From an uncultured Gammaproteobacteria bacterium (lineage in GTDB: Bacteria > Patescibacteriota > Patescibacteriia > UBA1558 > S5-K13), in the NCBI GenBank assembly GCA_964639335.1, contig CAZXCJ010000001.1:1-60025 (forward strand): DNA of 60,025 bases. Reading direction: 5' to 3'. Positions 2,953 through 53,570 of this stretch are shown here, in pieces (position 1 is the stretch's first letter; every line of letters begins with the position of its first letter). Under the pieces are notes generated by a model that did not search any database, had not been told where the DNA came from, and saw only the letters and a list, made by a program, of their open reading frames with translations. A program made the translations under genes and the position numbers.

Positions 2953-3057
2953 ATTTTTTTCCTTTTCTTAATTCTTATTTAAAAAAACAAAAAACCGCTT
3001 ATTGCGACCCCTTTAGTTATCAAATTGTTATACTTGTCCCTACTCCTTACTCCCCCC

Positions 3058-3111
3058 CCTGCCTTGCCGTAGTTCCCCGCTTTTTTAGAAAAGTGGGTGA
3101 ACGTAGGCAGG
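3058..3111 (+). repeat. GC-rich nested-hairpin module (family member without a tRNA-derived tail)
   Basis: Outer arms cctgcct 3058-3064 / aggcagg 3105-3111, gtag...cgta junction, inner hairpin ccccgctttt..aaaagtggg. A G-U pair is possible only on the plus strand. Confidence 0.45.
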
Positions 3112-28308: not shown

Positions 28309-28433
28309 TAAAATATAAACCAACCCCCACCATCTCCCCCTTAGTAAGGGAGAGAGGGGGGGATAAAATTGGAAGCGAGAGTTAAAAATGCCAACTTTTA
28401 CCTTTTAACTTTTGCCTTTCAACTAAAAAACCT

Positions 28434-33236: not shown

Positions 33237-33308
33237 ATGTTTTATATTAATAAGTTCGTATATAAGGAGTTAGGCGAAATTTTATTTTTCTTACGCTAAT
33301 CTAAAAAT

Positions 33309-34058
33309 ATGACGAGAGACGAAATAACCAATCATTTGGCTGATAAATTTAAAAATAATTCTTTTGTGTTTGCTTTTTGGCTTGAAGGTGCAGACGTTCA
33401 TAACAGAGTCGATGAATATTCTGATATTGATATATGGATCGACGTTGAAGATAATCATGAATCAGAAATATTAAACGAAATTGAAGTTATTTTGTCAGAA
33501 CTTGGGAAAATAGACTTTACTCATGAAATAAATCATTCTCATCCAAAAATAAGACAAAAGTTTTTTCATCTTGAAGGAACTTCGGAATTTCTAATAATCG
33601 ATATTTGTTTACAAAGTCATTCGAGAATTTTTTGGTATAGAGAAGGATTCCAAGACGAAAAAGCAAAAATCATTTTTGATAAAAGTAATGTTATCCAATA
33701 CAAGCAAGTTAACCAACAAGAATTCGACGAGGAAATTTCAACAAGAATCAAAGAATTGAAAAAAACTTTTCTTTTCTTTCAAGCTTGGGTCAAAAAATCA
33801 ATAAATCGTAATAATTTCCTTGAAGCACTTGGCTCATATCATGAAAAGGTTTTACAACCTCTTGTTGAAATTCTAAGAATAAAGCATCAACCAACCAAAA
33901 ATGATTTTTACCTCAAAGACATCTCGAAAGATATACCAAAAAAACTTTTGTCAGAGTTGGAAGATTTATACAAAATAACTTCAATTGAGGATATAAAAAC
34001 GAAGAGCCAGAAAGCAAAAGAATTATTTTTTAGCGTTGTCGAAAATACCGAAAAATAA
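33309..34058 (+). CDS. nucleotidyltransferase-domain protein (ANT-like)
   Basis: GADVHNRVDEYSDIDIWIDVED (G-x-n-DxD). Confidence 0.5.
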   Translation: MTRDEITNHLADKFKNNSFVFAFWLEGADVHNRVDEYSDIDIWIDVEDNHESEILNEIEVILSELGKIDFTHEINHSHPKIRQKFFHLEGTSEFLIIDICLQSHSRIFWYREGFQDEKAKIIFDKSNVIQYKQVNQQEFDEEISTRIKELKKTFLFFQAWVKKSINRNNFLEALGSYHEKVLQPLVEILRIKHQPTKNDFYLKDISKDIPKKLLSELEDLYKITSIEDIKTKSQKAKELFFSVVENTEK

Positions 34059-34239
34059 AACATCGCATAACAGCACGTATCTGGTTCGGCAGATTGGACG
34101 CAATTTGATTCAAAAGGAATGTCAAATCTACCTCTCCCAAATTTCGCAAAAAACTATTAGATTCTAAAAGAAATTTTTGCGAAACTTCAGATACACGCGA
34201 ACGTTATGTGAAATATTTATTTTTCCAATCAATAAAAAC

Positions 34240-34575
34240 ATGGACTATTTTCAAAAATTAAAAGCAATTGCTAAAGGGTTAAATAAAAAATATCCCAATG
34301 GAAATAAACCATTTCAAATTATTACCCGGCTATCTGAAGAAACCGGTGAATTAGCAAAGGAAGTAAATCATTTTGAAAAAACTGGAAAAAAAATAGAAAA
34401 ATATGGTCCACCTGATAAAAATAATTTGGCAAAAGAAGTGCAAGATATTTTTCGTTCAGCTTGGCATGTTGCTTTATATTACAATATTGAAAAAGAATTA
34501 CTAAATTCAATAGACAAGCGCTTTAAAAAATTAAAAAAGGACAGCTACATTAAGGACAAAAATTTAAAAAAATAA
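34240..34575 (+). CDS. MazG-like nucleotide pyrophosphohydrolase
   Basis: LSEETGELAKEVN...AKEVQDIFRSAWHVA; start placed at the Met at 34240. Confidence 0.65.
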   Translation: MDYFQKLKAIAKGLNKKYPNGNKPFQIITRLSEETGELAKEVNHFEKTGKKIEKYGPPDKNNLAKEVQDIFRSAWHVALYYNIEKELLNSIDKRFKKLKKDSYIKDKNLKK

Positions 34576-34594
34576 ATCTGACATATCACATACC

Positions 34595-34623
34595 AAAAAA
34601 CCACTCAGTAAAACTGGGTGGTT
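34595..34623 (-). terminator. minus-strand intrinsic terminator
   Basis: rc reads aaccacccag-tttta-ctgagtggtt-tttttt. Confidence 0.55.
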
Positions 34624-50068: not shown

Positions 50069-50221
50069 GGTTGGGGGGGGGAAAAAGATATTTTATATAA
50101 CGTTTCGGGATATCTGAAGTCCCGATTTTTTAATTTATTATAGTTCAATATTAAGTAATTTTCTATTATTTTAAACTGTCTGTATTAGTAAATCGGGGTT
50201 TGGGTTGAATAAAAATGTTAA

Positions 50222-50605
50222 TTATTTTGCTATAAATTCTATATTTTTATAATTTTTTTTAGGATCTTTGCAATTTGGACAGCCATATTCTATAGGGTAC
50301 TGTTTAATATAATAATTTATAAATTTACCAAAAGCTAATAGTGGAAAATATTTTGGTTCATAACGAAGTGGCTTACCTTGAAATCCACAAGTATTGCATT
50401 TAATTTCACTCCATTTACTTGGTTTTGATATACTAAAGTAACTATGATATTTAATAGCTATTATAAATAAGTAAATTTCTAGTATAGATAGTATTAATAG
50501 AATTATTGTTAGAAGATTATTCTGATTTTTCCAAGACATAATACCGAAAATTATAAAAATAATTGCAAATAGAATAGGTTTGAATATTTTTTGTACTTCT
50601 TCCAT
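50222..50605 (-). CDS. membrane protein with a C-terminal zinc ribbon
   Basis: Two TM helices followed by CNTCGF...CPNCKD. Confidence 0.45.
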   Translation of the reverse strand: MEEVQKIFKPILFAIIFIIFGIMSWKNQNNLLTIILLILSILEIYLFIIAIKYHSYFSISKPSKWSEIKCNTCGFQGKPLRYEPKYFPLLAFGKFINYYIKQYPIEYGCPNCKDPKKNYKNIEFIAK

Positions 50606-50685
50606 AATATATAATATATAAATTAATAATTAATATTTTTATTCAACTAGATATCCCGTGTTATGTGATGTGTGAGTGACTTTGT

Positions 50686-51653
50686 TTATATCTTTTTTGA
50701 ATCATTTATTACTTTTGTCACGCTATTATTCAATTCGGCTAGGTTATTCTTTTCTTTTCTTTTAGTCAACATAGAATCACCACTACCCAAGTCTTTAAGC
50801 GAATGTCCACTGTGCCACCACTTGTCGTCTATGCCAATAAATCTATCATGAAATGTATTATTTTTATAGATGGTGATTGCTCGTCCCTCGGATTTTAGTT
50901 TTTTAACTTGTACAAAAAAATCTGCTGGGCTAGTTTTGTATGTGATAATAGTGATATTAATTCCCAGTTTTAAAAGTTTGACCATAGTAAGGATCTGATC
51001 GTCTATATACTTATCAATGATAGTAATATTATTTTTTGCAGATTTCATTAAATCTCTTATGTGAATATATGACTCAAAACAATTACCCTTTTGTATGTAT
51101 AAATTGGTCGGTGCCAAGGCCTTTTCTTTTGCCTTCTTTTTAAAAGCGGGTAATTTTTTAATATCTTTATGTTCTTTTATTAATGTTTCCAAATTTAAAA
51201 AACTAGCTCCCGCGATTTTTTTCAATAAATAACCAGTTGTGAAGGGAAGCGAAATTACTAATACATCAATACTATTATTAATAATTTTTTTAAGCAAGGG
51301 AACAAAGTCGCCATCACCCGAGACTAATACGAATTTTTTAAATAACGGCAATTTTTGCATTGCATCTACAGATAATTGTACATCCAACCCCTTTGAAATA
51401 AAGCTGTCACCTCTTTTTATTAGTTCCATGTAGTATACCTTGTATCCAATCTTTTTTAGCATACTATAAAATCGACTTTGCATTTTATCAGATGAGTTTA
51501 TGGCACCATAAAAATAGATTTTTGTGCCCCCCCAAAATTATTAATAAGTAGATTAAAAAAATTAGCGTAATTAATCTTTATATTAATTATCTTGGTAGCC
51601 GTGTAAAGCCAATCACCATCTATAAATATTGCTGTAGGAATATTTTTGTTCAT
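50686..51653 (-). pseudogene. NYN (LabA-like) nuclease domain fused to an HDR-motif PLD-like C-terminal domain; frameshifted at a G7 tract
   Basis: The N-terminal part MNKNIPTAIFIDGDWLY...NNFGG (from 51653) runs into C7 at 51527-51533. The rest (VLVSGDGDF...FHDRFIGIDDKWWHSGHSLKDLG) is in the +1 frame. Confidence 0.6.
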
Positions 51654-52002
51654 TATTAAATTGATTCAAATAAAAAGTCACTCACATTTCATTTAACTCC
51701 TTATATACGAACTATTTAATTAAGGGGCTAAAATAAGGGGTTTGTTTATATAAAATTGTAAATCATAACAAGTTATGATTCTAATTAAATAATATCACTA
51801 TGTATTGAATATGACAATTAGGTTTAATTGATTTTTGTAAAATCTATTGACTTATTTTTTAAATATGTTAGGTTATAAATATAAAAGGCCGCAAAGAGCC
51901 TTTTTTTATTTGGTCGATTTATTAATAATTAATAATTTTTTGAATTTTGTGAGCTAATAATTTTCTATTATTATTCATAATTTTTAAAGAAAGTAAAAAA
52001 CT

Positions 52003-52506
52003 ATGAAAAGCAATTTAACTAAAAAGGATTTTATGAAAATGTCCGAAGATGAATTAAGGAATGTCTTAAATGAGAATAATTTGTCAGAGTACGAATTTGA
52101 GGCCATGATTGAGGCCCTGGAATTAAAAGGTTTGAATGGTTCAATTATAACTATATCAGAACCTGATAGCGAAGAAGCGCAAATGGCTATGGAATATATT
52201 AAATATCATAATCAATTTCCACATTTATGTTTAGGCCAGACATCTCAGAAAAAATTGAAAAAATTCAGTCAGGATTTATTTAGAAATAGTGCTAGTTTAG
52301 AAGACAAGAAAAAGGCCTTAATTGCTTTAGGGCATACAGCTGATATTTTTGCATATAAGAGCTTAGAAAAATATATAGAAAGGCCAGATAGTGATTTGAA
52401 AATTTGGGCTAATATGGCCCTTCAAGAATGTCAGGATTTTTTAAAATCTAATTTAACAAATAAGCCAGTAATAAATATCACAGATTTAAACCAATTAAGT
52501 CGTTGA
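52003..52506 (+). CDS. hypothetical helical-repeat protein
   Basis: ORF only; HEAT-like KKALIALGHTAD. Confidence 0.4.
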   Translation: MKSNLTKKDFMKMSEDELRNVLNENNLSEYEFEAMIEALELKGLNGSIITISEPDSEEAQMAMEYIKYHNQFPHLCLGQTSQKKLKKFSQDLFRNSASLEDKKKALIALGHTADIFAYKSLEKYIERPDSDLKIWANMALQECQDFLKSNLTNKPVINITDLNQLSR

Positions 52507-52549
52507 CAACAGTATACAATATGCATACAATTGTATATATATTGTATAT

Positions 52550-53116
52550 ATGTTGAATTTTATCAAAAATAATCAAGGGAAAATTCTTAATTTGTTTTTT
52601 CAAAATACAGATCAAGAGTTTTATTTAAGAGAGATTGCACGTAAATTAAATAAAAAACCGGGCTATTTTCAAAGGGATATTAAAAATTTGGTAAAAGAAG
52701 GTATTTTAAATGATGAACGAAGGGCCAATTTGCGCTATTTTAAACTGAACAAAGAGTACCCTTTTTATAAAGAAATAAAGGAAATAATTTCTAAGTCCTT
52801 TGGTATTGAATTTACATTAAAAAAATTAATTAATAAATTTTCAAATATTGAATTGAGTTTTATTTTTGGTTCCATTGCTAAAAATTTTGAACATAGTGCA
52901 AGCGACATAGATTTGATATTAATTGGCAATATTAATCAAGACTTATTAATAAAAAATATTACTAAATTGGAGAAAGAATTAAATAGAGAAATTAATTATA
53001 TAGTATATGATAAAAAAGAATTCATTGAAAAAATTAAAAAGAAAAATGATTTTATAATAAAAATTTTACAAGAACCCAAAATAATTTTAAAAGGCAAATT
53101 GAATGACTATCAATAA
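52550..53116 (+). CDS. wHTH plus minimal nucleotidyltransferase (MNT) protein
   Basis: FIFGSIAKNFEHSASDIDLILIG (GS-x-DxD); N-terminal wHTH-like region. Confidence 0.7.
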   Translation: MLNFIKNNQGKILNLFFQNTDQEFYLREIARKLNKKPGYFQRDIKNLVKEGILNDERRANLRYFKLNKEYPFYKEIKEIISKSFGIEFTLKKLINKFSNIELSFIFGSIAKNFEHSASDIDLILIGNINQDLLIKNITKLEKELNREINYIVYDKKEFIEKIKKKNDFIIKILQEPKIILKGKLNDYQ

Positions 53117-53570
53117 TTTAATTAAAGAAAATTTATTACAAAAGATAGATAATATATCTCTTAAACAAATTGAGAGAAGATTCACTATGGCTTTATCATT
53201 TTCAAATTCAGCCAAAATTGATTTAAAAAATAAAAATAAAGATAATATAGTTGTTTATAATGATATTTATAATAGTATTCGTATTATGGGAGAAACATTT
53301 TTATTATTGAACGGCTATAAGGCATCAGTAAAGAATTATCATAAAACAGTTATTGAAGCCATGAAAAAATTAATGGACATTAAAGATATGAATTTTTTAT
53401 TTGATAGGTTGGATAGGATGAGAAAAAATAGAAATAAGCTTGATTATGATATTAATAGTTTTGATATTTCTAAGAAAACTTTAGAAAATATGCTGTTGGA
53501 TGCCGGTGTTTTGGCTAAAAAAATTAAAAGTTTTATAAATAAAAGCAATCCTCAAGAAAAATTGGTATAG
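53103..53570 (+). CDS. HEPN-like protein (partner of the MNT)
   Basis: 14-nt overlap with the MNT gene; helical; RMRKNRNKLDYD resembles R-x4-6-H but lacks the His. Confidence 0.5.
   Translation: MTINNLIKENLLQKIDNISLKQIERRFTMALSFSNSAKIDLKNKNKDNIVVYNDIYNSIRIMGETFLLLNGYKASVKNYHKTVIEAMKKLMDIKDMNFLFDRLDRMRKNRNKLDYDINSFDISKKTLENMLLDAGVLAKKIKSFINKSNPQEKLV

Follow-up and report, generated by a model that had tools for sequence, protein, structure and literature searches.

A predicted NYN-PLD nuclease gene as a likely cassette of an integron-like gene-capture system in a genus of Patescibacteria

The window analyzed here, a 60,025-nt stretch from the 1.07-Mb, 66-contig genome of a member of the Patescibacteria (genome G000), contains on its minus strand a gene for a predicted nuclease in which an NYN domain is fused to a PLD-like domain; the gene is bracketed by a short inverted repeat and is broken by a frameshift at a run of seven G residues. 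Comparison of this locus with other loci of the same genome, with the sister genome G005 and two further congeners (G002 and G004), and with metagenomic contigs leads us to consider it likely that the NYN-PLD gene is one cassette of an integron-like gene-capture system restricted to this Patescibacteria genus. The cassette would span about 51697 to 50647 on the minus strand and would consist of a 5' arm, a compact open reading frame (ORF), a 3' arm, a 12-nt spacer and the trinucleotide GTT. The preliminary description of this stretch had taken the gene for a single-gene mobile cassette; this idea stands in substance, but the repeats are not the terminal repeats of a transposon and instead represent the inner, cassette-specific parts of the two halves of a putative recombination site.

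The gene starts with an ATG at 51653 and ends with the stop codon at 50686-50688. The two repeat units, tgtgagtgacttt (50671-50683) beyond the stop codon and aaagtcactcaca (51674-51686) ahead of the ATG, are separated from these codons by 2 nt and 20 nt, respectively; they are exact 13-bp reverse complements of each other, as originally described. Taken alone, such a pair is near chance expectation in an AT-rich 60-kb window (26 of 100 shuffled sequences gave at least two matches with no more than two mismatches), and these are the only two copies of the 13-mer in the genome, so that it does not qualify as a repeated element. The repeat is significant because the same architecture recurs around other genes. 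The 13 bp are the inner part of a 24-bp complementarity that joins the 5' and 3' ends of the cassette. The 5' arm (51674..51697, minus strand) consists of the conserved GTTAAATGAAAT (51697-51686) and the cassette-specific TGTGAGTGACTTT (51686-51674, the right copy of the repeat); the 3' arm (50660..50683, minus strand) consists of the cassette-specific AAAGTCACTCACA (the left copy) and the conserved ACATCACATAAC (50671-50660), and is followed by the 12-nt spacer ACGGGATATCTA and GTT (50645..50659, minus strand). The resulting frame, GTTAnnnGAAAT ... ACATCAnnnTAAC-12 nt-GTT, surrounds other single genes at no fewer than three loci of the genome and in the three congeners. Accordingly, the earlier proposal to look for the 13-mer pair around other genes failed with respect to the 13-mer itself and succeeded with respect to the frame, which brackets other genes with arms of different sequence.

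A chance match, or the ends of a miniature inverted-repeat transposable element moved by a transposase in trans, might be invoked on the grounds that a lone 13-mer pair is not rare in such a window. Either origin seems extremely unlikely given that the 13-mer has no other copies in the genome, that the architecture recurs with different sequences, that the conserved parts are located outside the repeat rather than at its tips, and that no target-site duplication was seen. Nor are the flanking repeats a trait of the NYN-PLD family: across 34 homologue loci, the own-flank matches (mode 7 nt) equaled those in cross-locus controls, with only the window standing out. The repeats belong to the cassette frame and not to the family of the cargo.

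In the cassettes of G000, GTTAnnnGAAAT is followed by about 13 cassette-specific nucleotides that are reverse-complementary to the 13 nt in front of ACATCAnnnTAAC. These variable inner arms (apart from TGTGAGTGACTTT in the NYN cassette, TTTCAAATCCCAC in a kinase cassette, TTTTATTTTTC in a nucleotidyltransferase cassette and TTTTAAAATTTAT in a NUDIX cassette) match their own partners at 11-13 of 14 positions, whereas arms paired across cassettes match at 4.7 on average (permutation p about 0.001). In a covariation test that applied a 25-pair helix to 13 aligned cassettes, 68.9% of the cells are paired, versus 30-42% in controls with the helix slid along the alignment; the covariation score of 0.405 was reached in none of 500 shuffles (0.167+-0.024), and 18 pairs change on both sides. 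At the locus of the nearest intact relative of the nuclease (protein P0001, contig L009), the repeat is altered once on each side, T-to-G together with A-to-C. Two columns are unpaired in 11-12 of the 13 sequences, and the 24-nt complementarity of the arms includes a conserved 2-nt mismatch. The AAC/GTT of the sites is nearly invariant, and cores such as GCCTAAC/GTTAGGC occur; the short sites have no L boxes, and the stem extends past the crossover point. When the 3' and 5' ends are joined in virtual junctions at G^TT (the caret marks the predicted point of exchange), they fold into stems of 24-25 bp, on the better-folding strand, with a 12-nt loop. The DNA folding z-scores of these junctions range from -5.2 to -10.2 in four of five cassettes and are weaker, -2.0/-4.5, in the NUDIX cassette.

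The complementarity could act instead in RNA, with the 5' and 3' untranslated regions pairing into a 24-bp stalk for RNase III processing or mRNA protection and the flanks serving as a shared leader and trailer, on the model of the processing stalks around rRNA. Covariation is equally expected from RNA pairing, transcription from the promoter-like site upstream would probably include the arms, and the 5' element described below has a Shine-Dalgarno sequence and a mini-ORF. An RNA stalk nevertheless leaves unexplained the changed cargo at individual slots, the presence of the same cargo elsewhere and the sharp switch at G^TT, as well as the adjacent recombinase, and no known RNA family was matched in this region in Rfam (best E-value 0.52). 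The non-Watson-Crick positions also speak against it, being mostly A.C on the sense strand, that is, G.T on the bottom strand (22 versus 5), a strand bias that is suggestive only, as one conserved column supplies 12 of the counts. On balance, we view a purely RNA-level role as improbable; the RNA-stalk and DNA-site readings are compatible and not mutually exclusive.

The first cassettes are preceded by an attI-like 5' element of about 85 nt, which in the window occupies 51698..51782 (minus strand) and ends with ...GTTCGTATATAAGGAG; other copies are present on contigs C4 and C15 of G000 and in the congeners. It carries AAGGAG (51702-51697), and a mini-ORF, ATG AAA TGT GAG TGA (51692-51678), lies inside the 5' arm. 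Most copies of the element share this organization, with AAGGAG, 5 nt, ATG AAA and a stop codon within 1-7 codons (51678-51702 in the window copy), and the ATG of the cargo is found 0-30 nt past the mini-ORF, without a Shine-Dalgarno sequence of its own. The mini-ORF is reminiscent of the short ORF in attI1, which boosts the translation of cassettes. A promoter-like site, TTGTCA-17 nt-TG-TATTAT (51789..51817, minus strand), reads into the cassettes and is conserved in the sister genome G005, and no minus-strand terminator-like site was found between the NYN-PLD gene and the 127-aa gene that follows it. The promoter-like site, the Shine-Dalgarno sequence and the mini-ORF probably drive the expression of promoterless cargo.

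In an nhmmer search of the genome, the 5' core (GTTCGkATATAAGGAGTTAnnnGAAAT) was detected six times and the 3' core (ACATCAnnTAAC-N12-GTTC) seven times; the copies are located on contigs C1, C4 and C15 and are paired and co-oriented around single genes. Among 86 genomes of the order, the 5' core was found six times in G000, five times in G005 and once each in G002 and G004; the reversed pattern, used as a control, was not found in these four genomes and gave three scattered matches in other genomes. The 5' core was absent from viral contigs and is confined to the genus of the window. The cargo of the cassettes includes a Pol-beta nucleotidyltransferase, a MazG-like protein, an APH-like kinase, a NUDIX hydrolase and several unknowns.

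Several comparisons indicate that the cassettes move. The homology between the window and the P0001 locus takes in the gene together with some 65 nt ahead of the ATG and some 40 nt after the stop codon (50645-51717) and goes no further; the same NYN cargo, in the same frame, thus sits in another context and another array, where the next cassette has the arms GTTATCTGAAAT-TGCACG / CGTGCA-ACATCAGATAAC. Conversely, the content of a given slot changes. The rpoC-ftsK and Sua5/DUF167 slots hold wholly different content in G000 and G005, with backbones that are 78-87% identical, and the rpoC-ftsK slot of G005 holds a different 227-aa gene, framed by the short sequences that also flank the window gene, with GAGTTAWATGAAAT before and ACATCACATAAY after it. 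Further evidence comes from contig L204 (JGI sample 3300023295). Beginning at T 50646, it matches the window at 100% identity for 2525 nt, a stretch that includes the 127-aa cassette and reaches into rpoC; on the upstream side of T 50646, L204 instead has the 3' element of another cassette (ACATTACCTAAC-ACAGGATATGTA-C), preceded by unrelated sequence. A contig from Logan, L203, starts exactly at 50646. Because of this switch in identity and this contig start, we let the NYN cassette end, on its 3' side, between G 50647 and T 50646, which is the G^TT of the core site, at one junction. The NYN variant co-occurs with the L204 variant in JGI sample 3300023295, and there is cassette turnover within the population.

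In G004, a gene for a 278-aa tyrosine recombinase starts about 70 nt from the 5' element and is divergent from two cassettes; an orthologous gene occupies the same position in G002. The intergenic region between the recombinase gene and the cassettes in these two genomes is homologous to the ~85-nt element that precedes the first cassettes in G000 and G005. The G004 protein scores 240.6 bits against the NCBIfam profile NF040815 ("XerA / integron integrase"; cut-off 220), and its best match in the PDB is VchIntIA (E-value 2e-44). An enzyme of this IntI/XerA-like type probably moves the cassettes. In an excised circular or single-stranded form, the two arms would be contiguous and would make up a hairpin recombination site comparable to the attC of integrons. 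Recombination at G^TT would leave two halves of the site on either side of the ORF, and it is because of these flanking halves that the gene looks as if it were bracketed by an inverted repeat. The cassettes would dock behind the attI-like element.

Some of the same facts could point to Xer/dif-type modules, such as the Acinetobacter pdif modules and IMEX, moved by the dimer-resolving recombinase of the host on dif-like 11-6-11 sites. Modules of this kind are small accessory units without a recombinase gene of their own, bracketed by short inverted sites and shuffled between replicons (PMC6449649, PMC13141974), much like the cassettes described here. The recombinase next to the cassettes is XerA-like, G000 keeps one Xer-like gene, and, compared by eye with the dif consensus, TTATGTGAAAT resembles TTATGTnAAnT and ACATCGCATAA the XerC arm. 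The scan of the genome with the dif consensus is difficult to reconcile with this explanation, giving only background-level matches, with the cassette sites scoring below background and no clear chromosomal dif. The sites of pdif modules and IMEX are sequence-conserved 28-bp mimics of dif that alternate in orientation and are carried on plasmids; those described here are chromosomal and stand in direct orientation along the arrays, and their arms covary, which argues for recognition of structure over sequence. Movement by Xer on dif-like sites therefore seems unlikely.

The cargo of the window cassette combines two recognizable domains. Its N-terminal piece as called (51498..51653, minus strand; 51 aa) contains the FIDGDW motif of the NYN domain, and the C-terminal piece (50686..51483, minus strand; 265 aa as called, in a frame that is open from 51537) contains the remainder of the NYN domain, a linker and a PLD-fold domain with FHDRFIGID..WWHSGHSLKDLG. 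In the protein obtained by reading through the tract, residues 7-142 match the Pfam NYN profile (PF01936) with an E-value of 4.5e-20 and 73.1 bits (cut-off 24.2), and residues 157-313 match positions 146-301 of the 306 positions of PDC-S05, a candidate defense system of PADLOC (E-value 7e-26); the C-terminal domain also gives a weak match to DrmC. PDC-S05 is not matched over its full length, the N-terminal half being NYN instead, so that a fusion with NYN is not the PDC-S05 architecture. A protein search returned 121 proteins, among which about 100 are full-length relatives of 315-335 aa with the same two-domain organization, mostly from Patescibacteria, and the family amounts to about 100 protein clusters; for some homologues PF13091 is on record. 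Metagenomic contigs yielded NYN-PLD relatives when scanned with the alignment of the C-terminal domain; the scan of genome contigs with the full-length alignment was dominated by generic NYN proteins and gave only one true relative.

In the family alignment, W15, D114, D116, H269, R271, W280, S282, K287 and G290 are invariant and D276, G283 and S285 nearly so, and the acidic residues of the NYN domain (D12, D114, D116) are conserved. The C-terminal motif is HxR(x4)D(x6)GxSxK, with Arg in place of the canonical Lys, and thus departs from the motif of PLD-family nucleases such as Nuc, Zucchini/PLD6 and DrmC, HxK(x)4D(x)6GSxN. In the AlphaFold model of P0001 (83% identical to the window protein; mean pLDDT 88.6), the N-terminal domain superposes on the LabA-like NYN protein 2qip (Foldseek E-value 8.7e-10, TM 0.81), in line with an affinity to LabA/NYN nucleases, and the C-terminal domain matches Zucchini/PLD6, MITD1, FAM83 and the C-terminal domain of TrmB (E-values 6e-5 to 1e-3, probability 1.00). 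As modeled, the C-terminal domain has the PLD fold. The profiles, the alignment and the predicted folds thus bear out the NYN and PLD-like fusion originally proposed for this gene. The two homologues examined in long contigs are located directly behind restriction-modification genes. Because family members adjoin such genes, the protein is predicted to be, probably, an anti-phage or anti-plasmid effector; these neighbors fit a defense role but fall short of proof of it. In the literature, we found no published experimental tests of the PADLOC PDC systems, which are candidates.

The reading frame changes at the G7 tract at 51527..51533 (C7 on the plus strand) or just after it, because 51537 is where the open stretch of the second frame begins. 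Read-through of the tract yields a protein of 322 aa, which is both the length predicted earlier for the repaired gene and the length of the closest intact relative. A sequencing error, one of the options considered at the outset, is unlikely because the identical G7 break recurs in contigs from ten samples obtained with different assemblers and pipelines: ERZ27315523, ERZ27315634 and ERZ27315761 from ENA; 3300031227, 3300005936, 3300023299, 3300022887 and 3300023295 from JGI; and SRR5581653 and SRR5459190 from Logan. At the consensus level, the frameshift is real. Over 6.8 kb, no more than a single base (0-1) separates any of these contigs from the window, and the population is nearly clonal.

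The tract is derived: 35 intact relatives read FG-x-x-T-K at this point, with at most four G, and the P0001 locus reads TTTGGAACAAATACA. The ratio of nonsynonymous to synonymous substitution rates (dN/dS) relative to this 83%-identical gene is 0.17, all 50 of the 50 conserved family positions are kept in the broken gene, and the frameshift is the only defect seen. Given this dN/dS value and these conserved positions, the break is young, or else tolerated or leaky. A decaying gene with the frameshift as its sole visible defect is possible. Most likely, the G7 gene is switched off in this population; either the break inactivated a costly first-position cassette not long ago, or a slippage-prone tract stands here in its off state. 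The majority of the family is undamaged: about 50 of the approximately 57 NYN-PLD loci that are not cut off are intact. Two homologues, L127 and L149, are frameshifted elsewhere in the gene.

The alternative that the gene is not dead, with G7 serving either as a phase-variable switch or as a site of low-level -1 ribosomal or transcriptional slippage that yields some full-length nuclease, can also be considered. Poly-G/C contingency loci occur in the AT-rich bacteria Campylobacter, Helicobacter and Neisseria, and here, too, the G tract lies early in an accessory ORF of a genome with 30% GC in which such tracts are over-represented (15 G/C runs of at least 7, about a fourfold excess over the expected 3.4, and 8 of at least 8 versus 0.5). 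The tract is a new feature in a gene with all conserved residues intact, and the distant homologue L136 (~53% identity) carries an independent break at this very codon, within a G6A6 run (L136 2575-2595). Unlike contingency loci, the tract shows no length polymorphism at the consensus level, all ten assemblies having G7, and the nearby G9 run behind rpoC, where contigs often break, is likewise invariant in four assemblies. The sequence behind the tract shows no stimulatory RNA structure (z about 0), for which reason programmed frameshifting was rejected, and in a near-clonal population an intact-looking sequence is expected for a young pseudogene as well. We thus regard a functional switch or slippage as rather unlikely. 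The genome contains four G/C runs of 9; G/C runs of 7 or more in the window are found at 50073-50081, 3052-3059 and 28356-28362, among others.

The inferred cassettes resemble those of integrons in several respects. In both cases, compact, mostly promoterless single-ORF cassettes form arrays behind a conserved site with a promoter-like element, and the sites, putative ones in the present case, are imperfect palindromes in which pairing is kept while the sequence varies, AAC/GTT is nearly invariant and unpaired positions are conserved; the structural, bottom-strand character of attC has been described (PMC2727003). The junction at G^TT (one case), the presence of an ORF-less cassette (C4:11818-11874), the divergent orientation of the recombinase gene relative to the array in G004 and G002, the best PDB match to VchIntIA, and typical cargo (nucleotidyltransferase, NUDIX, MazG, kinase and unknowns) add to this resemblance. 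There are also differences. The IntI-specific additional domain, which defines IntI (10.1101/2022.02.06.479319), is not present in the recombinase. Base pairing continues for about 17 bp past the R-box-like part, which leaves one half of the hairpin at the 5' end of the cassette, and the central part can be as short as 12 nt, without recognizable L boxes. The attI-like element is present in several copies per genome, none of them next to a recombinase gene in the genome of the window, and the host belongs to a Patescibacteria genus.

A number of observations weigh against the assignment of these cassettes to an integron-like system. The complementarity of the inner arms is weak in the cassettes of G005, G004 and G002. 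The recombinase scores 208 bits against TIGR02249, the integron-integrase subfamily, which is under the cut-off of 265, and its residues 183-204 align with residues 181-245 of IntI4, falling about 45 residues short where the missing domain would be. No such recombinase is encoded in the assembly of the window, where the sole gene with a PF00589 match is Xer-like, and there is none at the orthologous rplS locus of this genome; because of this absence, the cassette loci of the genome are regarded as orphan arrays. The adjacency of recombinase and cassettes in two congeners may reflect a single shared ancestral locus. Some junctions suggest the second GTT (the one in GTTCG) as the crossover point, which makes the G^TT geometry tentative, and neither a circular nor an empty-site form was observed. 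The nuclease activity and the defense role of the cargo are, for their part, predictions, and so is the off state of the G7 allele.

Because the recombinase lacks the IntI domain and the geometry of the sites differs, the system is set apart from integrons, even if its working appears integron-like. Whether it is an undescribed system in the full sense seems to us evenly balanced: such a system would combine a short XerA/IntI-like recombinase without the IntI domain, hairpin sites cut near the apex, scattered attI-like docks without a recombinase, ongoing turnover, and an NYN-PLD nuclease held off by a new poly-G tract. A literature search returned no report of integrons or of such a cassette system in Patescibacteria. 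These bacteria are ultra-small and host-dependent, and the exchange of accessory and defense genes among them is poorly understood. If the interpretation is correct, sites that keep their structure and are free in sequence, together with a recombinase that has no IntI domain, would broaden what counts as integron-like recombination and could reveal an enzyme intermediate between the Xer and IntI types. The signature GTTAnnnGAAAT ... ACATCAnnnTAAC-N12-GTT would provide a simple means of finding cassettes in sequence data, and the NYN-PLD fusion would represent a mobile candidate defense gene associated with restriction-modification.

The next cassette in the array (50204..50646, minus strand) encodes a 127-aa membrane/zinc-ribbon protein (50222..50605) and has the arms GTTGAATAAAAATATTAATTAT / ATAATTAACATTTTTATTCAAC, at 50204-50228 and 50623-50647. 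A 10-bp GC-rich inverted pair spans this region; the copy on the left (50106-50115) belongs to the terminator hairpin of rpoC, and the one on the right (50649-50658) to the 12-nt spacer of the NYN site.

A second locus of the window, on the plus strand, contains a cassette with a gene for a 249-aa Pol-beta-type nucleotidyltransferase (33254..34087; arms GTTAGGCGAAAT-TTTATTTTTC / GAAAAATAAA-ACATCGCATAAC) and, adjacent to it, a degenerate cassette with a MazG-like gene (34203..34594; arms GTTATGTGAAAT-ATTTATTTTT / AAAAATAAAT-ctg-ACATATCACATACC), a paralogue of which is found in another cassette array of G000 (C4:14863-15245). This locus (33254-34600) did not turn out to be an empty site in the congeners: G005 holds an unrelated small Cys-rich gene there.

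Elsewhere in G000, an 'empty' cassette without an ORF (C4:11803-11874; L179 1004-1075) consists of the long 5' element, 17 nt and a 3' element, and three further 3' elements follow in the array behind it. Just behind the kinase cassette, the 3' end of the DUF167 gene is present again as a partial duplicate (C15:4734-4849), which suggests a duplicated docking region inside the kinase-cassette array. In the window itself, the genes at 52003-53570, namely a 167-aa gene and an MNT/HEPN pair, are backbone genes and not cassettes, and they are present in the same order in G005.

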